In this document: one piece after another, positions 28,638-39,478 of the stretch | Layout: every line of letters starts with the position of its first letter | How positions within the stretch are numbered: position 1 is the stretch's first letter | The notes under the pieces: generated by a model | Databases searched by the model: none | Seen by the model: the letters and a program-made list of their open reading frames with translations, nothing else | Told to the model about the DNA's origin: nothing | Assembly (NCBI RefSeq): GCF_011602085.1 | Contig: NZ_JAAONY010000004.1 | Coordinates: forward strand, 93,472-157,471 | Source: Pseudoteredinibacter isoporae | GTDB taxonomy: Bacteria; Pseudomonadota; Gammaproteobacteria; Pseudomonadales; Cellvibrionaceae | Reading direction: 5' to 3' | DNA: 64,000 nucleotides | Translations under genes and position numbers: made by a program

Positions 28638-28855
28638 TTGTGATGGGGTAATGCAAGAGTTCTGAATCTGCCTCTGGGGCCGCTTTCATGGTATGGACAT
28701 ATGCCGATATTAAGCTCTGTGTCTCCCTGTTTCAGTGCGGCTCTGTGGTTGCGGATGGGTGGCCTTGGCGGGTGTGGGTTTTGACGACATGTTTTCAACT
28801 GTTTGTTTTTAATAGGTTTTCCGGGTTTCAATTCATTTGATTAAGGGCTTATTAA

Positions 28856-28903
28856 TTATTACATGTAATAGCGTTGACATATCACATGTAACAGAATATA
28901 TTT
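28856..28903 (+). promoter_or_regulatory. Sigma70 promoter (TTGACA-N17-TATATT) overlapped by palindromic TTACATGTAA / CACATGTAAC operator-like repeats
   Basis: attaTTACATGTAAtagcgTTGACAtatCACATGTAACagaaTATATTtt. The -35 and -10 hexamers are consensus or near-consensus. TTACATGTAA is a perfect 10-bp palindrome, repeated as CACATGTAAC between -35 and -10. Confidence 0.55.
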
Positions 28904-28908
28904 TATCC

Positions 28909-29538
28909 ATGAAAGCGAAATCTTCAGCACATTATCAACGCGAATACCGCCGCCGCTTGCGAGAGCAGGGTTTGGTGAAGAAAGAGGTGTGGATTCTTCC
29001 TGAGAATGCCAAGCAGCTTGCTGATATTGAAAAGCAGTTGCGCTTGCCTGGGAGCGGGGTTCGATCTAAAGGAGTGATGAGTATGACAGATAAAGTGGAA
29101 CGTTGGACGACGAGCAGTTTGTTCGAGGCTCTGGCAGAAACTGAACTTTTTGCCAGCGGGCAGGCGACCCTGGAATTAATCGACGGAATTGAGCCAACCC
29201 TGCACATTGTGATGACTGAGTACGGTGATTTGCCGGTTTTCCTGACGGTGAGTGGCGAGCAAATTATCGTTGAGTCTGTACTTTGGTCAGTTGCTGAGGT
29301 CAGCAATGTCGATGCATTTAATAAAACGGTGTTACAAACGCACAAATATTTTCCGCTTTCGACGATCAGTCTGGATGCAAGAGTCGATGGAAGCGATTAC
29401 TATCACATGTTTGGCGCATTGAGTGCGTCGTCCATTCTTCCCAATATTGTGTTTGAAATTGAAGTGTTGGCAAGCAATGTGATTCAGGCCACAGAGGCCT
29501 ACAGTGAGTTTTTATCCATTCCAGTTGAAGCGAGCTAA
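28909..29538 (+). CDS. YjfI-like DUF2170 protein (possibly two products: leaderless small N-terminal ORF plus DUF2170 from ATG 29089)
   Basis: C-terminal 150 aa (MTDKVERWTT...YHMFGALSASSILPNIVFEIEVLASN...) resembles the DUF2170/YjfI family that precedes PspA-like YjfJ in E. coli. AAAGGAG lies 8 nt before ATG 29089. ATG 28909 sits only about 6 nt after the -10, so it would be leaderless. Confidence 0.5.
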   Translation: MKAKSSAHYQREYRRRLREQGLVKKEVWILPENAKQLADIEKQLRLPGSGVRSKGVMSMTDKVERWTTSSLFEALAETELFASGQATLELIDGIEPTLHIVMTEYGDLPVFLTVSGEQIIVESVLWSVAEVSNVDAFNKTVLQTHKYFPLSTISLDARVDGSDYYHMFGALSASSILPNIVFEIEVLASNVIQATEAYSEFLSIPVEAS

Positions 29539-29552
29539 GCAAGGAGCAGGTG

Positions 29553-30239
29553 ATGAATATTTGGTCAAAAATGATGACAGCCCTGCGTGGTGGCGTTAAT
29601 GAAGCGGGTGAGGCTATTGTCGATAGCCAGGCATTGAGAATTCTGGATCAGGAAGTTCGGGATGCCTCCGAGGAGTTAAAACAATCCAAAGGCAGCTTGG
29701 CGGAAATCATGGCCAGACAGAAGCTGGCCGAAGAAAAAGTTGCGCAGCTTCAAAAGCAAATCGATGAGCATGAGGGTTATGCAATCAAAGCCTTGGAAAA
29801 GGGCGATGAAAACCTGGCCCGCGAAGTGGCTGAAAAAATTGCCAGCCTTGAAAATCAGCAGTCTCAGGAAAAGGAGTCCGCTGCTGGCTTTTCTGAAAGC
29901 GTTAGCAAGTTGCGCACGGCCATTCAACAGAGCGAGCGCAACATCAAGCGGCTTAAGCAACAGGTGGATACCGTTAAGGCCACGGAAAACGTTCAGAGGG
30001 CCCAAGCTGCAGTTGCTGAGCGACACAGCGGTTCTAATTCCAAGATGCGTACAGCCATGGATTCCCTGGAGCGTATCAAGGAGAAGCAGGCCTTGAAAGA
30101 AGCACAAATGTCGGCAGCCAGTGAGTTGGCAGAATCCGATGTTGACGTTTCCCTGCAAACCAAGCTGGAAGAAGCCGGCATTGCCAGCACTGGAAACAGT
30201 GCCGACGACATTCTTGAGAGACTGAAGAAAAAATCCTAA
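29553..30239 (+). CDS. PspA/IM30-family protein (YjfJ-like; ESCRT-III-like fold family)
   Basis: MNIWSKMMTALRGGVNEAGEAIVDSQALRILDQEVRDA... is the typical PspA N-terminus, followed by long coiled coils. 228 aa. AAGGAG lies 6 nt before the ATG. Confidence 0.85.
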   Translation: MNIWSKMMTALRGGVNEAGEAIVDSQALRILDQEVRDASEELKQSKGSLAEIMARQKLAEEKVAQLQKQIDEHEGYAIKALEKGDENLAREVAEKIASLENQQSQEKESAAGFSESVSKLRTAIQQSERNIKRLKQQVDTVKATENVQRAQAAVAERHSGSNSKMRTAMDSLERIKEKQALKEAQMSAASELAESDVDVSLQTKLEEAGIASTGNSADDILERLKKKS

Positions 30240-30288
30240 CGATACAAAAGCAACATAATACAAACGCAAGGAATAAGGAGGTGTGGGA

Positions 30289-30987
30289 ATGTTTGCAATT
30301 TTACTCAGTGAAGGTATGAATCCCTTTTACCAAAATATTGCTTCGTTCCCCACCGTTTTTTTTACTTTCTTTCTTGCCATTACCGTATTGTATTGGTTGG
30401 TAGCGGTTCTCGGCTTTGTGGATATTGATATTCTCGATTTCGATATCCCGGATGCCGATGGCAGTATGGACGTAAACCCGGACAATGGATTGTCCACCCC
30501 TGATGTGCTCGCCGGCTTTATGCTCCGTTATGGATTAGCAGGGGTGCCGGTCACCATCATTGTTTCCCTGATCGCATTATTCGGCTGGTTGGCTTGCTAT
30601 TACATTGTTCACTTCCTGTTTGGCATTATTCCTGATGGTCTAATGCGATACCTCGCTGGCATCCCTGTATTGCTGGTTTCATTATACCTGGCCGTGCACA
30701 TTACAGCGGTGTTGATTAAACCGCTGAGACCTCTGTTTCAGAAAGCTCAGCAACAAACGGTCAAACATATTCTTGGTCAAACCGCTATTGTTCGTACGTC
30801 CAAAGTTGACAAGGACTTTGGTGAGGTCGTTATGGAAGATGGTGGGGCAGGCTTAATCCTGAAAGCTCGTGCAGCGGGCGATGCGGTTTACACCAAAGGC
30901 AATCGGGTGGTGCTTTTGGAGCATTTAAAAGAAGACAACCTTTATCGAGTGGTATCTGAAGAAGAATTTTCAGGTCCCCAGCAGTAA
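30289..30987 (+). CDS. YqiJ-like (DUF1449/NfeD-like) inner-membrane protein, flotillin partner
   Basis: N-terminal TM helices, an acidic loop DIDILDFDIPDADGSMD, and a C-terminal soluble beta domain (QTAIVRTSKVDKDFGEVVMEDGGAGLILKARAAG). AAGGAGG lies 7 nt before the ATG. Immediately precedes the flotillin gene, as in E. coli yqiJK. Confidence 0.6.
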   Translation: MFAILLSEGMNPFYQNIASFPTVFFTFFLAITVLYWLVAVLGFVDIDILDFDIPDADGSMDVNPDNGLSTPDVLAGFMLRYGLAGVPVTIIVSLIALFGWLACYYIVHFLFGIIPDGLMRYLAGIPVLLVSLYLAVHITAVLIKPLRPLFQKAQQQTVKHILGQTAIVRTSKVDKDFGEVVMEDGGAGLILKARAAGDAVYTKGNRVVLLEHLKEDNLYRVVSEEEFSGPQQ

Positions 30988-31027
30988 CAAACTCAGAATC
31001 TAAAAACATGGACATGGAGTAAGCACA

Positions 31028-32974
31028 ATGGCTGACTTATCTGTACTTATGCCAATCGTAACCGGTGTAGGCATATTTTTTATCGTACTCATGGGCCTGG
31101 CGGCTCTATTCAAAGCCTTCTATGTGAAAGTTGAACAGGGGACAGCGTTGATTGTTAACGACATGAGTTCCAGCCCCAAGGTGCATTTTACCGGCGCTCT
31201 GGTTTACCCGATCATCTATAAGAAGGAACTGATGAAAATCTCCTTGATCACTCTGGAGGTAGATCGTCGGGGTAAAGATGGGCTCATCTGTGCAGACAAT
31301 ATGCGAGCCGATATTACCGTAGCGTTTTATCTACGCGTGAATGAAACCGCCGAAGATGTATTGAAAGTCGCCAAGTCCATTGGTGCAGGTCGTGCTTCGG
31401 ATAAGGAAGCCGTTAACCAGCTATTTAACGCCAAGTTTTCTGAAGCCCTGAAAACCGTTGGTAAGCAGATTGAGTTTGTTGCTCTGTTTGAAAATCGCCA
31501 GGAATTCCGTGAAAAAATTATCCAGGTGATTGGTGATGATTTGAACGGTTATGTTCTGGAAGATGTGGCCATTGATTATCTGGAGCAGACTCCGAAGGGC
31601 TCTCTGGATCCAAGTAACATCTTGGATGCGGAAGGCATTAAAAAGATTACCGAGTTAACCGCTGAGCAAAACGTACGCACGAATATTCTAGAGCGTGACG
31701 AAGAGCTGGCGATCAAGAAGAAAAATGTCGAAACCGTAGAGGCTATGCTTGAGCTGGAACGTCAGCAAGCCGATGCAGAGGCTAAGCAACAGCGTGAAGT
31801 TGCCACCATTCAGGCCCGCGAAGAAGCTGAGACCAAAAAGGTTCAGGAAGAAGAGCGCCGTAAGGCCGAAGCCACAACCATTCAGGTTGAGCAGGATCTG
31901 GCCGTGCAAACCGAAAACCAGAAGCGTGAAATTGAAGTGGCTGAACAAAACCGTCAGCGCGCGGTGGCCATCGAAGAAGAAAAGGTGACCCGAGCAAGGG
32001 ACCTTGAGATTGTTTCCCGTGAACGTGAAGTTGAGATCCAGAAAATCGAAGCGGATAAGGCCATTGAAGTCGAGAAGAAAGAAATTGCCAATGTGATTCG
32101 TGAGCGTGTTGCGGTTGATAAAACGGTTGCGATCGAGGAAGAGCGAATCAAGGAGGTTCGCGAGGTATCGGAAGCGGATCGCGCCAAGCAGACTCAGGTA
32201 CTGGCCGCCGAGGCGGTTGCCGAAGAAGAGAAAGTGAAGCAGGTGAAAGCGGCCGAGGCAGAAGAGCTGTCAGCCAAGCACAAGTCTGTTGAGATTACGA
32301 CGTTGGCTCAGGCTGAGTTGGATGCCGCTGCAAAAGAAGCCGATGCCAAGAAAAAACTGGCCGAAGGTGTTCAAGCCGAAGAGGCAGCGTCTGGTCTGGC
32401 TGAAGCTAAGGTTCAGTCCGCAAAAGCGGATGCCCTTGAGAAGGAAGGTGTTGCTGAAGCTCATGTTATTAAGGCGAAAGGTGATGCCGAGGCTGATGCC
32501 TTGCTGGGTACCGGTAAAGCCCAGGCCGATGTGACTGCTGCGCAGGGTGATGCAGAAGCACAGTCTGCTCGCGAAATTGGTTTGGCAAATGCCGAGGTAA
32601 CTCGTGAACAGTTCAAGGCTGAAGCCGACGGTTTGGTCGATAAGTTCCAGGCGATGAACAGCATGAGTGAAGATGCCCGTTCCCACGAAGAATATCGCAT
32701 GGGTCTTGAGACTGCGCTTAAAGAGGCCCTGGCTTCCATCGAAGCAGGTAAAGACATCGCCCGTGAAAATGCCGAAGTACTGGCGGTGGCCTTGCAGAAA
32801 GCGAAGATCGATATTGTGGGTGGTGAAGATCACTTCTTTGATAATTTCGCCAAATCTCTTTCAATCGGTAAGGCCGTTGACGGTCTGGCGGACAAGAGCG
32901 GGACCATTCAGGCGCTTTTGCACCGAGTGATTGAAGGCAAACCTGAAACATCCAAAACTGCTGAGGACGCTTAA
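31028..32974 (+). CDS. Flotillin-family SPFH/band-7 protein (YqiK-like)
   Basis: N-terminal TM, an SPFH domain (YVKVEQGTALIVNDMSS...ITLEVDRRGKDGLICADNMRADITVAFYLRV), then about 300 aa of Ala/Glu/Lys-rich coiled coil. 648 aa. Confidence 0.85.
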   Translation: MADLSVLMPIVTGVGIFFIVLMGLAALFKAFYVKVEQGTALIVNDMSSSPKVHFTGALVYPIIYKKELMKISLITLEVDRRGKDGLICADNMRADITVAFYLRVNETAEDVLKVAKSIGAGRASDKEAVNQLFNAKFSEALKTVGKQIEFVALFENRQEFREKIIQVIGDDLNGYVLEDVAIDYLEQTPKGSLDPSNILDAEGIKKITELTAEQNVRTNILERDEELAIKKKNVETVEAMLELERQQADAEAKQQREVATIQAREEAETKKVQEEERRKAEATTIQVEQDLAVQTENQKREIEVAEQNRQRAVAIEEEKVTRARDLEIVSREREVEIQKIEADKAIEVEKKEIANVIRERVAVDKTVAIEEERIKEVREVSEADRAKQTQVLAAEAVAEEEKVKQVKAAEAEELSAKHKSVEITTLAQAELDAAAKEADAKKKLAEGVQAEEAASGLAEAKVQSAKADALEKEGVAEAHVIKAKGDAEADALLGTGKAQADVTAAQGDAEAQSAREIGLANAEVTREQFKAEADGLVDKFQAMNSMSEDARSHEEYRMGLETALKEALASIEAGKDIARENAEVLAVALQKAKIDIVGGEDHFFDNFAKSLSIGKAVDGLADKSGTIQALLHRVIEGKPETSKTAEDA

Positions 32975-33034
32975 GCGGTATTGTCGAAGGCAATATAACG
33001 CCCAGCGTTAAGTAGGCAGGGGCAGCATGCCCCT

Positions 33035-33055
33035 TGGATAGACTGCCCGAGTGCT
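33035..33055 (+). terminator. Weak hairpin between flotillin and giant gene (possible partial terminator or RNA-processing site)
   Basis: caggggcagcatgcccctt, with a 6-8 bp GC stem and no U-tract. Weak. Confidence 0.2.
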
Positions 33056-33082
33056 GGTTCACTCCGGGCGGTGGTTTAGGCC

Positions 33083-36000
33083 ATGCAGAAGGAAAACCAG
33101 ATGGTAGAGCAGGTGCAATCTACAGATCTTGTCGACAATGCAGTCGCGGAAGGCGGCGCTTACGAAATCATTAAAAAGCGCTTGCTGGAGCAGGGTAAGC
33201 AACTCGACGCCAAAATCCAGACACTGAATCAATCCAGACTGGAAGAGTTTGGCAGCTCGGATATGAACGTCGCTGCACGGGTTCGAGTGCGCACCGAAAA
33301 CAATTGCATCGCGCGTGATATTGTTCAGATTGGCGATCATTTATTGTTTGCCTATAACGTCTTTATTGGGCTTAAAAAAGAAACCAAGGTCGAGGACGTC
33401 TTTGCGCTTTTTGATGTCAAAGAGGGGACGGATGGCGTCGAAATGACCCCTGTGTCTCTGGAAGGCAGCTTTCTGAAAGAAGCCTCTTTCCTGAGTGATT
33501 TTGAAGAGCTGTATCGTTATTACAAACACACCAAACTCATCCAGCTAATTATTAAAGATGGCAAATTGTTGGCTGGATTCCAGATTGGTGAGCGTCTGGA
33601 AGATATCCGAGTGTTTCGCTGGTCGGTATCACACGACGGGAAAACCGTTCAGTACATCGACAATCGTGGCGAGCGTGATATTCAGTTACCTCCGTCCTAC
33701 GACTTTGAATGGATCGAAACCGATCGTGAAAATGCCGTTCACGGCCGTCATCCACACATTAATATTCTCGATACGGTGTTTGTGGAGACCGTTGGTGGCG
33801 ACCTGACCATCAAGATCGAGAACAACACCGAAGACGGCCTGGGCATTTATCGCGAAACCGTAGAAGATAAGACTCAATCTCTGGATGATGCTGAGATCGC
33901 CTATGCAGCGGTTGGCAGTCTGATTCTGATTAAAGTGCGGCCTTATCGTGAAGATAATCGGCGCTACTTTATTTACAACACCCTCACCGAAGAAGTCCTC
34001 AGGGTCGATGCGATTGGTGAATCCTGTGTTCAACTTCCGGAAGACCATGGGCTTATCTTCCCGGGTGGGTATTATCTGCAAACGGGTGAATTCAAACATT
34101 TCGATGAAGAAACCGAAGGGCTGAAGTTCAAACGCAAGATCCGTTCGCCCAATGGCGAAGATATGCTGTACGTGTTTTATCAGCCTGAAGATGGGGTGGT
34201 AGGCCTGTTCTCCTATAATCTGATTGAGAAGGCATTGCAGAACCCGATTTACGGCCACGGATATGCCTTGGCCGAAAATGGCCGACTGGTGATTTTCTCG
34301 GCCGAGGTGGAGCCGACACGTGTACATCCTATGCAAATATGGGAAACGCCCTTTGAAAGTGCAGAATACGCTAGCAAGGCACCTGCCAGTCAGAGTTTTT
34401 TGGGGCGTATCGGTAATGCTGAATTGGTTCGAGGGGTGTCCGATCTCTACAGCATTTGCCGAATGATCAACAATCAAAGTGTTTCTGCCCGGTTATATGA
34501 AGAACTGGAAAAGTCGGCCAAGAAAATATTCGATGATCACTATTGGATCGAAGAGTCTGAAACCCAGGACATCGCGGCGGTTTTGAAGGAAATATCATCT
34601 ACATCAGAGTTGGTGATTGATGAGTTTGAAAAAGTCCAGAGCATTCAACAGCAATCTGCCAGGAGTATGCTGGAAGCGGAACAGCAACAGGAGGCACTGT
34701 TGCAATCGGTTCGCCCGGAAAACTGGGACAATGCCGAAGAATATGTGAACGCATTGGCTCAGCTGCGCCGTCAGCGTGGACATTTGGTGACCATGCGCAG
34801 TTTGCGCTATATCGATCTGGAAAAAATAGGCAAGCTTGATGAAGAGCTGCAATCGGTCGAGGAGAATCTCACCGAACGTACCGTCGAGTTCCTCTCGGAT
34901 GAGCAGGCGCTGGAACCGTATTTACATAAAATCGATGACTTGAACAAGCAGGTTGACGGGGCGGAGACCATTGCCGTTTTGGAGCCATTGATTGAAACCA
35001 TCGAAAGTACCGCCGAAGGTCTGGATCTTCTATCAGAGTTGATTGGCACGCTGAAGGTGGATGATGCGACGATAAGAACTCGTATTATCGATTCCATTTC
35101 GATGGTGTATTCAAAGCTGAATCAGAGTAAGGCGAGTGCCAAACATAAACAAAAATCTTTGGGTTCATCCGAAGCAATTGCGCAGTTTTCTGCGCAGTTC
35201 AAATTGTTTTCACAAAGTATTACTAATGCTTTGGGCGTTTCCAGCACTCCGGAGAAATGTGATGAACAGCTTTCACGCTTGCTGGTGCAGTTAGAAGAGC
35301 TGGAAAGCCAGTACAGCGAATACGATCAGTTCCTTGCGGATATCATGGATAAGCGCGAGGAGATTTACGAATCGTTCGAAGGTCACAAGCAACAATTGCT
35401 GGATGCTCGGCAGCGCAAGGCGCAATCGGTTTCCGATGCGGCCTCCCGCATTCTGGGCAGCATTGAAAAACGTTCATTGAAATTCACAGAAGCGGATGAG
35501 CTGAATACCTATTTTGCGTCCGATGCCCTGGTGATGAAAATCCGCGAGCAGGTTGAACAACTGCGTGAGCTGGATGCCGCTGTGAAGGCGGATGATGTGG
35601 AAGCAAAACTGAAAGCCATTCAAGAGCAGGCCTTGCGTTCCCTGCGCGACAAAACCGATATCTATGAAGATGGCGGCAATGTCATTAAGTTGGGGCCGCG
35701 CCATAAGTTCTCGGTAAACACTCAAGAGTTGGATCTCACGATCATTCCCCGGGACGGTCATTTGAATGTCCACCTTACCGGTACCGATTATTACGAGGTG
35801 ATTGAGCATCCCGAGTTGATGGCGCTCAGAGAGTTTTGGGGCATGGGATTGGAATCTGAAACTCCTGAGGTGTATCGAGCTGAATACCTGGCTTCCTTGA
35901 TTCTTGATGCGGCGAAACATCAGCAGCATGATTTGTCGATGCCAATACTGAAGGCAGCCTTGAACAAAGAAGGTGAGCTTGATCGTGTCGTTCGCGAATT

Positions 36001-38461
36001 CGCCGGACCGCGTTACAAAGAGGGTTATGAAAAGGGCGTTCACGACCACGATGCAGCCTTGTTACTGCGCACCTTGATTCCGGCGTTTGATAGCGCTGAT
36101 CTGCTGGTGTTCGACCCATTGAGTCGAGCACTGGCCCAGGTCTTTTGGGCCAACATCAAAGGTTTGAGTCGCAACAATCGCCAGAACGGGCGAAAGGAAG
36201 AACGAAAGGAGCAGCAAAAGCAGGCGGCCATTTCCTACACCAGCTGGCCCGAGCGTGCGCAATCGGCGTTGCAGATGGCATCCATATTCCGAAGTCGTGA
36301 AGCCATGGAGCTGCTGTCAGAAGAGGTGGCCAACTCCATGCGCGATTTTGTTGAGCAGCATCCTTTGCCGGTCAGTGAGCTGGATATGCGTCGCGCTGCG
36401 GATTACCTGGTAGCCGAGTTGGGGCGTGAACAAATCGAATTTATTGGCAGCAAATACGCCGTACAGTTGGCCGAAGAGCTCAAACGTTCGATGAATGATG
36501 AAACCTGGCGTCGTTATCAGATGGCGCTGGAAAAGATGATCGGCTGGCCGGCCGAGCGTTGGAATTTAACCGCCGCTTGGTTGCAGGCGCTGGTAGATGA
36601 AAAACAGTTATCGTCTTTGGAGAGTTATATTCCTGAAGCTGTTGCATTGATTAATGCTGATGAGCGTTTGGATCGCCGTTTAAGTGAAGTGGATCTGGAA
36701 CTCAAGATTGAAGGCTTGATGGGAGATCATGCCATCATCGAAGATCGAAGCCTGTCTTTCGGCCTGGATGCTTTTCTTTTGAAGCTGGAGCGTCATCGCT
36801 TTGAGGTCGTACCAGCCTATCACCGTTACCTGGATCTGCGGCAGGATATCATTCGCAGTGAGCGGGATATGTTGCGCTTGGAAGAGTTTAAGGCGCGCCC
36901 ATTAAGCTCGTTTGTGCGCAACCGTTTAATCAATGAATCTTATTTGCCACTGATTGGTGATAACCTTGCCAAGCAGATGGGTACGGTGGGCGACAGTAAG
37001 CGCACCGATCTTATGGGATTGTTGATGATGATCTCTCCTCCAGGTTACGGTAAAACCACCTTGATGGAATATGTGGCCAACCGTTTGGGTTTGATTTTCA
37101 TGAAGATCAATTGTCCCTCACTTGGTCATGAAGTGGTTTCGCTGGACCCGGAACAAGCCCCCAATGCCACGGCACGCAAAGAGTTGGAGAAACTCAATCT
37201 CGGCTTGGAAATGGGCAATAATGTCATGTTGTATCTCGATGATATTCAGCATACCGATCCGGAATTTCTCCAGAAGTTTATCTCACTGTGTGACGGCACT
37301 CGTAGGGTTGACGGCGTGTGGAAGGGTAAAACCAAAACCTACGATATGCGAGGACGCAAGTTCTGTGTGGTGATGGCGGGTAACCCGTATACCGAATCCG
37401 GTGAAGCGTTTAAGATTCCTGATATGCTTGCGAACCGTGCGGATATCTACAACCTCGGTGATATTCTTGGGGGGATGGACGAACAATTTGCGCTCAGCTA
37501 TATCGAAAACTCCCTGACCTCCAATCCGGTTCTGGCGCCGCTGGCTGTGCGGGATATGGATGATGTTTACAAGCTCATTGATCTGGCCAAGGGAGCCAAT
37601 GTCCCCACTACGGATCTGAGTCATCAATACAGTGGTGCTGAAATCAATGAAATCACCGAAGTCTTCAAGAAGATGATGGTGATTCAGGATGTTGTGCTCA
37701 AAATCAACAAGCAGTACATCGCGTCGGCAGCTCAAAATGATAAGTACCGTACTGAGCCGGCGTTCAAACTGCAGGGAAGCTACCGAAACATGAACAAGAT
37801 GACCGAAAAGCTATCGGCGGTCATGAACGAGAAGGAACTGATGCAGCTGATAGCGGATCACTATCTGGGTGAAGCCCAGCTGTTGACCACCGGCGCTGAA
37901 GACAACCTTTTGAAGTTGGCGGAGTTGCGCGGCAATATCACGGAAACACAGAGTGCCCGTTGGGAGCAGATCAAAAAGGACTACATGCGCAATAAATCCA
38001 TGGGCGGCGATGATGCCGATACCGGCGCCCGAGTCGTTGCGCAATTGTCAGACCTGGTTGAAAGCGTTCAGGGCTTATCACAACATGCCGCTGAAAACGG
38101 GGCTAAGGCAGAGTCAAAGCCTGAATCTAAACCTAAGCCAGAGCCTGAACTGAAGCCTCAGAACGACAACAGCGAAAAGCTCATGCAGCTTATGGAGGAA
38201 CTCACCGAAGCCGTAAGGCAGTCGAAGCCATCTGTTCAGGTGGTCAATGAGCCAGTGCCGGGAATCAACAAGCTTTTGTCGGCCCTTGCGCAGACCATTG
38301 AACACAGCATTTCGCCGCTGGTGCGCAGTATGGATAAAAAACTGGATATCGATTTGCGAACCCATGACAAAATGCGTGATATTTCCGAGCAGTTGCGCAA
38401 TCTGGAGTCAGAATTTTCAGGCAAAGCTGAGTCGGCCAATCCGGATGATCCGGTTGTTTAA
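33083..38461 (+). CDS. Giant (1792 aa) soluble protein with single classical AAA ATPase module; N-terminal beta-rich domain, long helical/coiled-coil middle, acidic KPE-repeat tail; family not recognised
   Basis: Uninterrupted 5.4-kb ORF with ATG at 33083. Walker A PPGYGKTT (37037-37060). Walker B VMLYLDDIQH (Asp-Asp at 37238-37243). Sensor-1 VVMAGNPY (Asn at 37382-37384). Arg-finger-like IPDMLANRADIY. No signal peptide or TM. C-terminal AESKPESKPKPEPELKPQ low-complexity stretch. Intrinsic terminator directly downstream. Confidence 0.8.
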   Translation: MQKENQMVEQVQSTDLVDNAVAEGGAYEIIKKRLLEQGKQLDAKIQTLNQSRLEEFGSSDMNVAARVRVRTENNCIARDIVQIGDHLLFAYNVFIGLKKETKVEDVFALFDVKEGTDGVEMTPVSLEGSFLKEASFLSDFEELYRYYKHTKLIQLIIKDGKLLAGFQIGERLEDIRVFRWSVSHDGKTVQYIDNRGERDIQLPPSYDFEWIETDRENAVHGRHPHINILDTVFVETVGGDLTIKIENNTEDGLGIYRETVEDKTQSLDDAEIAYAAVGSLILIKVRPYREDNRRYFIYNTLTEEVLRVDAIGESCVQLPEDHGLIFPGGYYLQTGEFKHFDEETEGLKFKRKIRSPNGEDMLYVFYQPEDGVVGLFSYNLIEKALQNPIYGHGYALAENGRLVIFSAEVEPTRVHPMQIWETPFESAEYASKAPASQSFLGRIGNAELVRGVSDLYSICRMINNQSVSARLYEELEKSAKKIFDDHYWIEESETQDIAAVLKEISSTSELVIDEFEKVQSIQQQSARSMLEAEQQQEALLQSVRPENWDNAEEYVNALAQLRRQRGHLVTMRSLRYIDLEKIGKLDEELQSVEENLTERTVEFLSDEQALEPYLHKIDDLNKQVDGAETIAVLEPLIETIESTAEGLDLLSELIGTLKVDDATIRTRIIDSISMVYSKLNQSKASAKHKQKSLGSSEAIAQFSAQFKLFSQSITNALGVSSTPEKCDEQLSRLLVQLEELESQYSEYDQFLADIMDKREEIYESFEGHKQQLLDARQRKAQSVSDAASRILGSIEKRSLKFTEADELNTYFASDALVMKIREQVEQLRELDAAVKADDVEAKLKAIQEQALRSLRDKTDIYEDGGNVIKLGPRHKFSVNTQELDLTIIPRDGHLNVHLTGTDYYEVIEHPELMALREFWGMGLESETPEVYRAEYLASLILDAAKHQQHDLSMPILKAALNKEGELDRVVREFAGPRYKEGYEKGVHDHDAALLLRTLIPAFDSADLLVFDPLSRALAQVFWANIKGLSRNNRQNGRKEERKEQQKQAAISYTSWPERAQSALQMASIFRSREAMELLSEEVANSMRDFVEQHPLPVSELDMRRAADYLVAELGREQIEFIGSKYAVQLAEELKRSMNDETWRRYQMALEKMIGWPAERWNLTAAWLQALVDEKQLSSLESYIPEAVALINADERLDRRLSEVDLELKIEGLMGDHAIIEDRSLSFGLDAFLLKLERHRFEVVPAYHRYLDLRQDIIRSERDMLRLEEFKARPLSSFVRNRLINESYLPLIGDNLAKQMGTVGDSKRTDLMGLLMMISPPGYGKTTLMEYVANRLGLIFMKINCPSLGHEVVSLDPEQAPNATARKELEKLNLGLEMGNNVMLYLDDIQHTDPEFLQKFISLCDGTRRVDGVWKGKTKTYDMRGRKFCVVMAGNPYTESGEAFKIPDMLANRADIYNLGDILGGMDEQFALSYIENSLTSNPVLAPLAVRDMDDVYKLIDLAKGANVPTTDLSHQYSGAEINEITEVFKKMMVIQDVVLKINKQYIASAAQNDKYRTEPAFKLQGSYRNMNKMTEKLSAVMNEKELMQLIADHYLGEAQLLTTGAEDNLLKLAELRGNITETQSARWEQIKKDYMRNKSMGGDDADTGARVVAQLSDLVESVQGLSQHAAENGAKAESKPESKPKPEPELKPQNDNSEKLMQLMEELTEAVRQSKPSVQVVNEPVPGINKLLSALAQTIEHSISPLVRSMDKKLDIDLRTHDKMRDISEQLRNLESEFSGKAESANPDDPVV

Positions 38462-38493
38462 TCTGTTTTCTTTAGCGTTTATCTGGCACAAGT

Positions 38494-38524
38494 AGAAAGA
38501 GGGCATGTCCCTCTTTCTTTATTT
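38494..38524 (+). terminator. Rho-independent terminator after giant AAA gene
   Basis: gaaagaggg-catgt-ccctctttc followed by tttattt, 33 nt after the stop. Confidence 0.8.
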
Positions 38525-38722
38525 GGCGCATTGGATACTTGATCGGCTGAATTTGTATCCCAAAATATGATGATTTTGTATTTTGTTGACGGATATTTTC
38601 TACCCCCTCACACTCATTAGTGCGCACTCAAGCGGTGTTTCATCGCCTGTAAGTCGTGAGCAAAAAGCGAATACTTTTAATAAATACACTATAAAAATAG
38701 CACTGCAAAAGGGGGCAGAGTC

Positions 38723-39478
38723 GTGGGTTTCATTATTCCAAAAAAACGATCCGCTGTTATTGTTTTCTGCATATTCTTTCTCAACGCCTGTTCTGAATCC
38801 TGGGATGGAAAATCAACCGCTGAAGAAATGTACCGCATTTATTTTGAGGGTTTTCCAGGTACGGTGAAAGCCTATGAAGCACATCCGGAGGAAAAGGCTC
38901 GACTTCTGGAGCGCAGTGGGCTCGCTTATGAAAGTGGCGGGCAGGGTGCGGCGGACAGTGCCTTTTTGGAAGAGTTCTGGCGCTTTTTCAGCACACAAAC
39001 CAGATTGAGTATACTGCGTGCTCCGGATGCTGATGTGATTCAGTATGCGCTGGCTCTGGCGAACTGGTTGGATTTCCTCGCCGATAAGTACGGCGCCTCT
39101 TGTCACGATATTGCGCTGAGCGGAAGTGATTTATTGCGATTGGGCTTGGTGTTGGAACACAGCAATACCCAGGGTTTTATCAGCGCCGGTGATAATTTGA
39201 TGTTGAAAGCCGGGCCCAGTAATCGAACACGAGCTTTGGCCAGGGACATGAAGCGACAGTTTGAAAACCTTAAACGGCATCTTCCTGTCGCGATGAACCG
39301 TAAACCCTATGAGATGAAGTTTGTTCTCGATCCATTTACTGCCGAAACCAAAGAGGAAAAACTCCAGGCCTGCCGAAGCTTATCTGCCAGCCTGTATTAC
39401 TTCAGTGCGCCAGAACGCAATAAGGCAACATCGGCAGCTTTTTTACGGAGCTATTTGCAGGGTGAGAATAACCCCTAG
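38723..39478 (+). CDS. Hypothetical lipoprotein
   Basis: GTG start preceded by GGGGG. Signal peptide plus lipobox MGFIIPKKRSAVIVFCIFFLNAC. 251 aa with no recognised domain. Confidence 0.45.
   Translation: MGFIIPKKRSAVIVFCIFFLNACSESWDGKSTAEEMYRIYFEGFPGTVKAYEAHPEEKARLLERSGLAYESGGQGAADSAFLEEFWRFFSTQTRLSILRAPDADVIQYALALANWLDFLADKYGASCHDIALSGSDLLRLGLVLEHSNTQGFISAGDNLMLKAGPSNRTRALARDMKRQFENLKRHLPVAMNRKPYEMKFVLDPFTAETKEEKLQACRSLSASLYYFSAPERNKATSAAFLRSYLQGENNP

Follow-up and report, generated by a model that had tools for sequence, protein, structure and literature searches.

The closest described system is the bacABCDEF operon of Pseudomonas aeruginosa (PA3732-PA3727; PMC2587700, PMC10948618), whose fourth product is a ~70-kDa coiled-coil membrane protein and whose bacE gene (PA3728) carries an ATPase annotation. 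RT-PCR in strain PA14 revealed a single operon in which the flotillin gene bacD is joined to the next gene, and in a bacA mutant all of the operon products were increased 6- to 13-fold (PMC10948618). Osmotic shock induces the PspA-like product PA3731, which is required for biofilm formation, swarming and virulence. The same neighbourhood class, comprising CesT/Tir-PspA, band-7/flotillin, YqiJ and AAA+ proteins, is described by Ravi et al. (2024), whose account is purely comparative and gives no mechanism (PMC11237479). In Escherichia coli, the corresponding genes form two separate pairs, yjfIJ and yqiJK, and no giant ATPase gene follows yqiK.

The locus considered here lies in a 64-kb window (64,000 nucleotides of a Pseudoteredinibacter isoporae contig, the whole stretch of DNA that was analyzed) and is the P. 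isoporae orthologue of bacABCDE, i.e., a described operon rather than a new system. Orthology is assigned because BacA scores above its equivalog cutoff and matches the crystal structure 8q8o, because the gene order is identical and because PA3728 is annotated as an ATPase. The initial annotation had listed five co-directional genes of this content, which the open reading frames and family assignments bear out, and had stated that no characterized system of this composition was known. The latter statement does not stand, as the locus matches both bacABCDE(F) (PMC2587700, PMC10948618) and the neighbourhood of Ravi et al., in which all four partner families adjoin the AAA+ gene, as here (PMC11237479). 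Taken jointly, orthology to bacA-bacE without bacF, the membrane-scaffold mechanism proposed below and control by BacA constitute our main reading, to which we assign a probability of roughly 60%. The products are, in order, BacA/DUF2170, PspA/IM30, a YqiJ-like protein, a YqiK-type flotillin and a ~1790-aa ATPase (DUF3686, DUF7902 and AAA+). The first open reading frame was listed as 28837-29538, and the other four are as given in the following list, together with the hairpin that ends the unit.

28909 to 29538, + strand: bacA, 209 aa (NCBIfam BacA equivalog; DUF2170/CesT-like domain at residues 66-202)
29550 to 30239, + strand: bacB, PspA/IM30 (YjfJ-type) ESCRT-III-fold protein (Pfam PspA_IM30)
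30283 to 30987, + strand: bacC, YqiJ-like multi-pass membrane protein (hhalign against E. coli YqiJ, synteny)
31028 to 32974, + strand: bacD, YqiK-type flotillin (BLASTP and hhalign against E. coli YqiK)
33083 to 38461, + strand: bacE-like giant ATPase, 1792 aa, probably 1786 aa from 33101 (Pfam, homologue alignment)
38494 to 38518, + strand: terminator-like intrinsic hairpin closing the unit

The product of gene 1 matches Pfam DUF2170 (4e-51) and the NCBIfam BacA equivalog NF050185 (317.7 bits, with a cutoff of 300), and the top Foldseek match of its AlphaFold model is the crystal structure of PA14_16140 (8q8o; 50% identity, TM 0.95-0.97). In the product of gene 2, the PspA_IM30 domain is full-length (residues 3-227, 3.4e-52), and the protein falls below the equivalog for PspA proper (TIGR02977, 24 bits, with a cutoff of 243). 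Gene 3 matches Pfam YqiJ_N at 0.009, below the cutoff, and E. coli YqiJ by BLASTP at 6e-4; these values and the comparison of a 22-homologue profile with E. coli YqiJ (hhalign 90.4%, E = 1e-6, 142 columns) weakly support the YqiJ-like assignment. For gene 4, no Pfam family, Band_7/flotillin included, was matched at E <= 0.01 (only noise was seen at E <= 1), and neither the single sequence nor a 20-sequence profile gave a useful match to PDB sequences. Its identity as a flotillin was settled by direct comparison with E. coli YqiK (BLASTP, 31% identity over 480 aa, E = 2e-46; hhalign, 99.9% over 408 columns), and its layout is that of an N-terminal TM helix, an SPFH-like region and a Glu/Ala-rich coiled coil. 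With respect to E. coli, the flotillin is thus homologous to YqiK and the membrane protein is distantly like YqiJ, with the DUF2170 and PspA-like proteins corresponding to YjfI and YjfJ. The two modules that are separate in E. coli are joined here, as had initially been noted.

The order and families of bacA-bacE are shared with P. aeruginosa, and the same five-gene order was found at locus L040 of P. paraeruginosa and in 51 more loci (about 50 genomes). Identities to the P. paraeruginosa proteins are 53% for BacA (by tblastn), 58% for PspA, 43% for the YqiJ-like protein, 65% for the flotillin and 57% for the giant ATPase. Among the related loci with adequate flank, the yqiJ-flotillin pair precedes the ATPase gene in 69/69, and as the arrangement recurs in all of them, it is far beyond chance. 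The BacA-PspA pair is found in 53/69, with the other 16 still carrying the ATPase gene, which makes the flotillin module, and not PspA, the constant partner of the ATPase. The synteny of the giant gene with flotillin and PspA genes in other genomes, which had been put forward as the point to be checked, is accordingly present at these two frequencies. The evolutionary core consists of three genes, namely the yqiJ-like gene, the yqiK-type flotillin gene and the giant ATPase gene, ahead of which the BacA-PspA pair was added in about three quarters of the loci. Abbreviated operons lacking the PspA pair, as well as an optional PLD gene, are also recorded by Ravi et al. (PMC11237479), and both are seen here.

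The locus is laid out with short gaps, one promoter and one terminator, the latter being the hairpin at 38494-38518, in agreement with the terminator initially reported after the giant gene. The largest gap separates the flotillin gene from the giant gene and had been given as 108 bp, which holds if the giant gene begins at 33083. A start at ATG 33101 is, however, more likely (the NCBI annotation has 1786 aa, M7 occupies an invariant column and AGGAA is found upstream), and the gap is then up to 126 nt. It is very unlikely that the giant gene is transcribed on its own and simply adjoins the PspA/flotillin operon, even though the gap of 108-126 nt, depending on the start, and a GC-rich hairpin within it (33019-33033) are compatible with such an arrangement. 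The hairpin lacks a T-tract, a scan of the + strand of the gap gave no promoter-like site, and the flotillin and giant ATPase genes are adjacent in 77 of 80 loci, the remaining three ending at a contig edge. Moreover, RT-PCR in P. aeruginosa crosses the equivalent junction, and the proteins are co-regulated in the bacA mutant (PMC10948618). A functional link between the five genes is supported by the invariant yqiJ-flotillin synteny and by this RT-PCR product.

The unit is flanked by housekeeping genes, namely those for fumarase, a phenylacetate-CoA-ligase-like protein and a two-component system, and the GC content of the locus is similar to that of its surroundings. Both observations argue against the locus being an anti-phage or abortive-infection system built around the large ATPase, a role that had been entertained initially and to which the occurrence of large ATPases with accessory membrane proteins in defence systems, as well as a PLD/HKD gene after the ATPase gene in 23 related loci, could be taken to point. 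PADLOC (PADLOC-DB of 2023) yielded only weak coiled-coil matches of PspA to JetC/LmuB and none for the other four proteins. Across related taxa, identity drops step-wise: a sister strain shares 89%, and Pseudomonas and Lysobacter share 52-58%, a pattern suggestive of vertical inheritance. Abortive defence thus finds no support, and we regard it as scarcely probable. The bac operon ends in a sixth gene, bacF (PLD/HKD-like), which is absent here, where bacE is followed by the terminator and then by an unrelated ORF; in P. paraeruginosa, the ATPase gene is followed by a PLD-like gene (PLDc_2, 1e-29) and then by recJ. Downstream accessory genes in other genomes encode rhomboid (28 loci), PLD (23) and Zn-ribbon (16) proteins, which were counted as fitting the membrane theme.

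The giant protein comprises the following parts, where the AlphaFold model took in residues 600-1792.

33203 to 34543, + strand: DUF3686 domain, residues 41-487 (Pfam, 1.3e-206)
34880 to 35660, + strand: long coiled-coil/helical-bundle region, ~residues 600-860, including DUF7902 (residues 608-692)
35747 to 36889, + strand: middle domain, ~residues 889-1269, mostly helical with a few short strands (AlphaFold, pLDDT mostly >90)
36980 to 37582, + strand: AAA+ module, ~residues 1300-1500, the only one found by Pfam (Pfam, alignment, AlphaFold, Foldseek)
38255 to 38422, + strand: conserved C-terminal helical hairpin after a Pro/Lys/Glu-rich linker (alignment, AlphaFold)

More than 6,000 homologues were found at E <= 1e-10; its N-terminal region has matches in 829 representative clusters, and those representatives that are full-length span 1.6-1.9 kaa. 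According to Ravi et al., the ATPase has an N-terminal β-propeller, the repeats of which are placed in the DUF3686 region, and a coiled coil (PMC11237479); here, AlphaFold models the coiled coil and Pfam assigns DUF3686. The C-terminal hairpin is a possible docking element. Its association with the PspA pair (42/11 against 5/11) is confounded by phylogeny, and in some loci the giant ATPase lacks this tail although the pair is present.

The Pfam description of DUF3686 reads "ATPase involved in DNA repair", and "DNA repair ATPase" is the name given to many database entries. We found no mention of DUF3686 in the literature searched, and the likelihood that the giant protein acts in DNA repair, as these names imply, is in our view close to negligible. 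There are weak RuvB_N matches and RuvB fold matches, but this likeness spans 44 aligned columns and does not extend beyond the generic AAA+ core. The genes that constantly adjoin the ATPase gene encode membrane proteins, and the operon has no conserved DNA-metabolism gene; in Pseudomonas, recJ lies beyond the PLD gene, and it is not conserved in other genomes.

Within the AAA+ module, the P-loop SPPGYGKT (1318-1325), Walker B LYLDD (1383-1387), sensor-1 N1434 and R1452 all fall in invariant columns, Walker B being DD (D1386/D1387) and not DE. In the motif reading of the initial annotation, the P-loop, Walker B and Asn sensor-1 are hence upheld; of the SRH-like arginines, R1452 is the only invariant one in the conserved stretch after sensor-1, and a two-arginine SRH is not seen there. 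Pfam AAA_5 scores 26.6 bits (cutoff 22) over profile positions 2-125 of 139, and matches 45/45 homologues tested, through sensor-1, with a best value of 5.7e-9. PF00004 also scores above its cutoff but aligns only over positions 2-49 to 2-68 of 131, ending at Walker B, and the likeness to the PDB sequences of p97, NVL and Rix7 covers only ~35 residues around the P-loop, corresponding to the P-loop, α1 and β2. Confidence in the AlphaFold model of this module is moderate to low, with β1 and β5 having failed to form. Between α3 and β4, the model contains a predicted β-hairpin before sensor-1 (strands 1408-1413 and 1416-1421, pLDDT ~67-85), a feature foreign to the classical clade. Its Foldseek matches were weak (RuvB, NorQ/CbbQ at E ~1e-2, dynein, MCM and ClpA), and no Vps4, katanin or p97 structure was among the best 50. 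Comparisons by hhalign with single E. coli sequences (RuvB 95% over 44 columns, FtsH 89% over 34 columns and the bona fide MoxR ATPase RavA 7%) were local and non-discriminating. Judging from alignment and model, the giant ATPase is probably not a Vps4-type AAA, and its initial description as a classical AAA outside the AAA_5/MoxR pattern is unsupported.

These results bear on the Vps4-like model, in which a giant ATPase of the classical AAA clade would recycle polymers of PspA (ESCRT-III-fold), its main substrate. We consider this model unlikely, given the 16/69 loci that carry the ATPase without adjoining PspA, the extent of AAA_5 relative to PF00004, the modelled hairpin, the composition of the best Foldseek matches and the single invariant arginine. 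This is so despite the PspA_IM30 protein in the same operon, the segment resembling p97, NVL and Rix7, the PF00004 score and the ESCRT-like roles that Ravi et al. propose for PspA-linked AAA+ proteins generally (PMC11237479). The Vps4-for-PspA analogy drawn initially is likewise weakened, as flotillin and YqiJ are missing from none of the loci that lack the PspA-BacA pair. The likeness to Vps4/ESCRT-III and HflK/C-FtsH is conceptual, in that an AAA+ protein is encoded with an ESCRT-III-fold protein and an SPFH-family scaffold; relative to FtsH and Vps4, Pfam found no protease domain in the giant ATPase, a specific MIT domain did not emerge and the classical-clade features are unconfirmed. At ~1,790 aa, with DUF3686 and a coiled coil, the giant ATPase is unlike the Vps4 or HflK/C-FtsH machines. 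Sequence inspection revealed no aromatic-hydrophobic-Gly pore-loop motif after β2 of the AAA+ module, and a threading unfoldase mechanism is therefore not evident.

The region upstream of bacA contains three elements.

28859 to 28868, unstranded: distal palindrome TTACATGTAA, putative BacA operator immediately upstream of the -35 element (motif scan)
28874 to 28902, + strand: σ70-type promoter TTGACA-17-TATATT (11/12 consensus positions)
28882 to 28891, unstranded: proximal palindrome TCACATGTAA, putative operator within the promoter spacer (motif scan)

The single strong promoter of the initial annotation is thus retained, while the gene boundary given with it is not, as the promoter sits inside the listed TTG ORF and the true start of bacA is the ATG at 28909, giving 209 aa. 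The two palindromes are the only matches at <=1 mismatch in the window. Across related loci (1.82 Mb scanned), 91 of 99 matches lie within 160 bp upstream of bacA, a ~2,500-fold enrichment, with the proximal palindrome beginning 26-28 nt before the ATG and the two being spaced 21-26 bp apart, each in 37/41 loci. The -10 element ends 6 nt before the ATG here, a TANNNT hexamer ends 6-7 nt before it in 41/51 loci, and a Shine-Dalgarno-like motif precedes it in 0/51. This layout is also conserved in Pseudomonas loci. A σ54 (-24/-12) promoter has been proposed for the bac operon, and the published P. aeruginosa model is one of σ54 and protein-protein control (PMC10948618); here, the promoter is of the σ70 type with putative operators, and no TGGCAC-N5-TTGCW site was found at <=2 mismatches between 26301 and 29006. 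The bacA mRNA is probably leaderless and, as palindromes flank the -35 element, the -10 element lies 6-7 nt from the ATG and no Shine-Dalgarno motif is present, the sequence points to an operon that is leaderless and autorepressed by BacA, at variance with the published σ54 model.

The protein that would act at these sites carries an N-terminal extension (residues 1-46, ~45 aa) that is conserved across genera and is missing from the 8q8o structure. The extension matches MazE-like, UrfF and RepC families weakly, in all cases sub-threshold, and is modelled by AlphaFold at medium confidence (pLDDT 56-77); from these matches and the model, it is a putative DNA-binding domain. YjfI, at about 133 aa, would be too short for the ~65-residue N-terminal region of BacA. 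One related locus (L064) has a BacA without the extension and, upstream of it, no palindromes. The extension, the palindromes and the leaderless promoter may together be a new side result. No relevant report of the TTACATGTAA motif was found in the literature searched, and neither the extension and the palindromic sites nor the rhomboid accessory gene appears in the available part of the text of Ravi et al. (PMC11237479).

In the mechanism that forms part of our main reading, the flotillin and YqiJ-like proteins would form an SPFH scaffold at the inner membrane, on its cytoplasmic side, and the PspA-type protein would polymerize on stressed membrane. The giant protein, with its DUF3686, ~260 residues of modelled coiled coil, helical middle domain, AAA+ module and tethered C-terminal hairpin, would be an ATP-driven scaffold or remodeller that assembles, reorganizes or takes apart membrane-bound polymers in envelope or osmotic stress. 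Contact of BacE with flotillin, YqiJ or PspA is inferred from gene linkage only. BacA would regulate the operon, with its CesT-like domain serving as a partner-binding module, a role that is in part shown and in part presumed. The extension would probably bind the two palindromes bracketing the -35 element and so repress the σ70-type promoter, whose transcript would start at or beside the ATG.

Most bacterial PspA/Vipp1 polymers and flotillin scaffolds are not known to have an ATPase partner that would disassemble or recycle them, and on genomic grounds the bac-type operon family is the clearest candidate to supply one. The P. aeruginosa version of the operon affects biofilm formation and virulence, although these phenotypes, like that of rhamnolipid, may not transfer to a marine Cellvibrionaceae host. 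The P. isoporae locus adds little by itself, as it is the orthologue of a described operon in a genome that was already annotated. A bolder joint proposal, which we find rather doubtful, is that BacE-type ATPases are the missing energy source of membrane-scaffold dynamics, docking on YqiK-flotillin/YqiJ assemblies and, in loci that encode them, on PspA-type ESCRT-III polymers, with BacA as sensor-repressor on a leaderless σ70 promoter. If true, BacE would be a functional counterpart of Vps4 from a different AAA+ lineage that remodels or disassembles membrane scaffolds, and a one-protein sensor-repressor, combining a DNA-binding extension with a CesT-like partner-binding domain, would replace the published σ54 model. 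Conserved palindromes on a leaderless promoter seem to be where BacA controls the operon, with the likely responsible domain being the one absent from the crystallized BacA, and it is to the flotillin/YqiJ pair, not to PspA, that the comparative results tie the ATPase.

The five co-directional ORFs that the initial annotation placed at 28837-38530 are present there, and the proposed families (DUF2170, PspA/IM30, YqiJ-like, flotillin and an ATPase) were all recovered, the third weakly and the fourth by way of YqiK. A protein with 100% identity identifies the organism as Pseudoteredinibacter isoporae. [quoted passage not shown] The second matches PspA_IM30 (Pfam, 3e-52), while failing the equivalog for PspA proper (24 bits, cutoff 243). 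YqiJ likeness of the third is weak: YqiJ_N is matched below the Pfam cutoff (0.009) and E. coli YqiJ by BLASTP at 6e-4, with a 22-sequence profile aligning to the latter at 90.4% in hhalign (E = 1.4e-6, 142 columns). The fourth yielded no match in Pfam or the PDB by sequence, profile query included, and aligns to YqiK of E. coli, which carries a flotillin-family annotation (31% identity across 480 residues, E = 2e-46; hhalign 99.9%). A terminator-like hairpin is present where a terminator had been proposed.

Features of the locus (window coordinates, or residues of the giant protein)
28874-28902, near-consensus σ70 promoter, TTGACA-17-TATATT
28909-29046, N-terminal extension of BacA, residues 1-46
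38494-38518, terminator-like hairpin
Residues 41-487, DUF3686 (Pfam, 1e-206)
Residues 608-692, DUF7902 (Pfam)
Around residues 1300-1500, AAA+ module, single copy (Pfam)

The giant ORF opens with two in-frame ATGs (33083-33103). Its start is probably the second, at 33101, since the protein has 1786 aa in the NCBI annotation, M7 (this ATG) is the first invariant residue of the alignment, and an AGGAA Shine-Dalgarno motif precedes it. In the gap after the flotillin gene lies a GC-rich hairpin (GGGGCA-GCA-TGCCCC, 33019-33033) without a T-tract, which may act in processing or stability, or have no role. Past the terminator, a 251-aa ORF (38723-39478) begins with a hydrophobic segment and then Cys (FFLNAC), resembling the signal of a lipoprotein. 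This ORF gave no significant match in a Pfam search, is shared with the sister strain (L001) alone and bears no relation to the genes that usually follow the operon.

The statement that no characterised system has this composition is wrong: comparative genomics has already described the system, and an orthologue of it has been studied by experiment. In 2008, PA3729-PA3732 of P. aeruginosa received the name biofilm-associated cluster (bac); osmotic shock induces the PspA-like PA3731, which is required for biofilm, swarming, rhamnolipid production and virulence (PMC2587700). In 2024 the same group defined by RT-PCR a six-gene operon, bacA-F, found that mutating bacA raises all operon products 6- to 13-fold, the two downstream ones included, and solved the BacA structure, of 139 residues (PMC10948618). 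Transcription of the giant gene independently of its upstream neighbours thus finds little support. Ravi et al. (2024) describe exactly this neighbourhood, with a PLD gene sometimes present and with abbreviated versions without the PspA pair (PMC11237479). PA3728 is listed as an ATPase with recurrent mutations in isolates from cystic fibrosis (PMC8190622). The abortive defence suggested initially, or the locus being a defence system at all, likewise has little support.

Which genes belong together was examined in one genome per species, which gave 80 loci with a giant protein 52-89% identical to that of the window, from Cellvibrionaceae, Pseudomonas (P. paraeruginosa included), Lysobacter, Xenorhabdus, Gilliamella, Lampropedia, a zetaproteobacterium and Longimicrobium. 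Neighbours were counted only where the upstream flank reaches 4.6 kb or more, which leaves 69 loci. The proposed synteny held in all 69 for the yqiJ-like and flotillin genes, which lie directly upstream of the giant gene on the same strand, but for PspA in only 53, BacA being nearly always alongside. In the other 16 the BacA-PspA pair is not adjacent and the upstream genes vary. The ATPase thus has its constant partners in the flotillin and YqiJ-like proteins.

Loci without an adjacent BacA-PspA pair
L004, L018, L026, L046-L050, L056, L063, L065, L067, L069, L070, L077, L078

The best supported reading is a membrane-stress operon built on three core genes (YqiJ-like protein, flotillin, giant ATPase), to which PspA and BacA, a CesT-like partner and regulator, are a frequent add-on. 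The genes of P. paraeruginosa (L040) run BacA, PspA, YqiJ-like, flotillin, giant, PLD-like and then recJ, so that by position BacE is the giant ATPase and BacF the PLD-like protein. Accessory genes follow the ATPase gene elsewhere (a rhomboid protease in 28 loci, a PLD/HKD gene, the counterpart of BacF, in 23, a Zn-ribbon gene in 16; example ORFs are L005:15329-15883, L040:15216-15923 and L005:16630-17163); none of the three is found in the window, and the accessible parts of the operon's literature do not mention a rhomboid link. A search with the N-terminal 594 residues of the giant protein found 829 representative clusters, 280 of them at E <= 1e-30; full-length members run to 1.6-1.9 kaa, and the architecture is thus a stable one.

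The giant protein had been assigned to the classical AAA clade, as opposed to AAA_5. The motifs behind this (SPPGYGKT, LYLDD, N1434 and R1452) are present and invariant, but the clade assignment did not hold. PF00004 is matched only up to position 49-68 of its 131, whereas AAA_5 is matched above cutoff over positions 2-125 of 139 in all 45 homologues tested, all of which also match RuvB_N. Against the PDB, the module profile finds p97, NVL, Rix7 and Cdc48 over ~35 residues, from β1 to β2 only (E about 2e-4), and single E. coli sequences give local alignments only (hhalign: RuvB 95%, FtsH 89%, RavA 7%). That the protein is a DNA-repair ATPase has little support. The AlphaFold model of residues 600-1792 (mean pLDDT 75.6) contains long coiled coils, with the AAA+ core at lower confidence, and predicts a β-hairpin at 1408-1421, between α3 and β4; a β-hairpin before sensor-1 marks the pre-sensor-1-insert clades, not the classical one. 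Foldseek matches to the model are weak (dynein, RuvB, NorQ/CbbQ, MCM, ClpA), with no Vps4, katanin or p97 structure in the top 50. We read the module as a divergent AAA+, with a classical or RuvB-like P-loop segment and an AAA_5- or RuvB-like second half. The partial PF00004 match, the predicted hairpin and the Foldseek result do not support a Vps4-type identity, and a Vps4-like giant ATPase is accordingly improbable, less likely than the best supported reading. Most likely, the ATPase would be an ATP-driven scaffold or remodeller of the operon's membrane-bound polymers, a role drawn from gene linkage only.

Two other regions of the protein are conspicuous. The middle domain (residues 889-1269; 35747-36889) is mostly helical, with AlphaFold pLDDT mostly above 90. 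It belongs to no Pfam family, and the whole-model searches yielded no specific fold match that could be separated out for it. A conserved C-terminal helical hairpin (residues 1725-1780; 38255-38422) is tethered by a Pro/Lys/Glu-rich linker. It was detected in 42 of the 53 loci with the BacA-PspA pair vs 5 of the 16 without, a comparison confounded by phylogeny; some giant proteins stop at about 1,630-1,645 aa, without this tail.

The strong promoter proposed for the locus is a near-consensus σ70 site, but one lying inside the ORF originally listed from a TTG; bacA starts at the ATG at 28909, the start shared by the NCBIfam BacA model and every homologue. BacA homologues in the operons share a conserved N-terminal extension of about 45 residues (KSSAHYQREYRRRLREQGLVKKEVWILPENA...EK.LR), followed by a variable linker. 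Crystallised P. aeruginosa BacA (138-139 aa, 8q8o) lacks it, and our BacA model matches that structure in the C-terminal domain only (TM 0.95, 50% identity). Upstream of bacA, two (sometimes three) TTACATGTAA palindromes bracket a -35-like TTGAC. Within 1.82 Mb of loci, 91 of 99 YYACATGTRR matches fall no more than 160 bp upstream of bacA, and the palindromes at 28859-28868 and 28882-28891 are the sole matches with at most one mismatch in the 64-kb window. In the related locus L064, where BacA has no extension, there are no palindromes upstream either. The extension, a candidate DNA-binding domain that would recognise the palindromes, matches MazE-like antitoxins, UrfF (a plasmid repressor) and RepC below threshold.

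In 37 of 41 loci having at least two palindromes, the start of the proximal one lies 26-28 nt ahead of the ATG. A TANNNT hexamer, the -10 element, ends 6-7 nt before the ATG in 41 of 51 loci, and a Shine-Dalgarno-like motif precedes it in 0 of 51. This layout (28859-28911 in the window) is conserved in Cellvibrionaceae, Pseudomonas, Lysobacter, Gilliamella and Lampropedia. Together with the absence of a σ54 site upstream of bacA in the window, these conserved sequences point to a leaderless σ70 transcript that BacA would repress. Such autorepression fits the negative control by BacA published for P. aeruginosa, whereas a σ70 promoter disagrees with the σ54 promoter proposed there, which, given the short gene annotation, would fall inside the coding sequence of the extension.

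Overall, the gene content and synteny initially observed are confirmed, and the interpretation was partly right, erring on the novelty of the system and on the ATPase clade. The interest of the locus is modest, and rests on the role of the ATPase and on the regulatory architecture noticed here.
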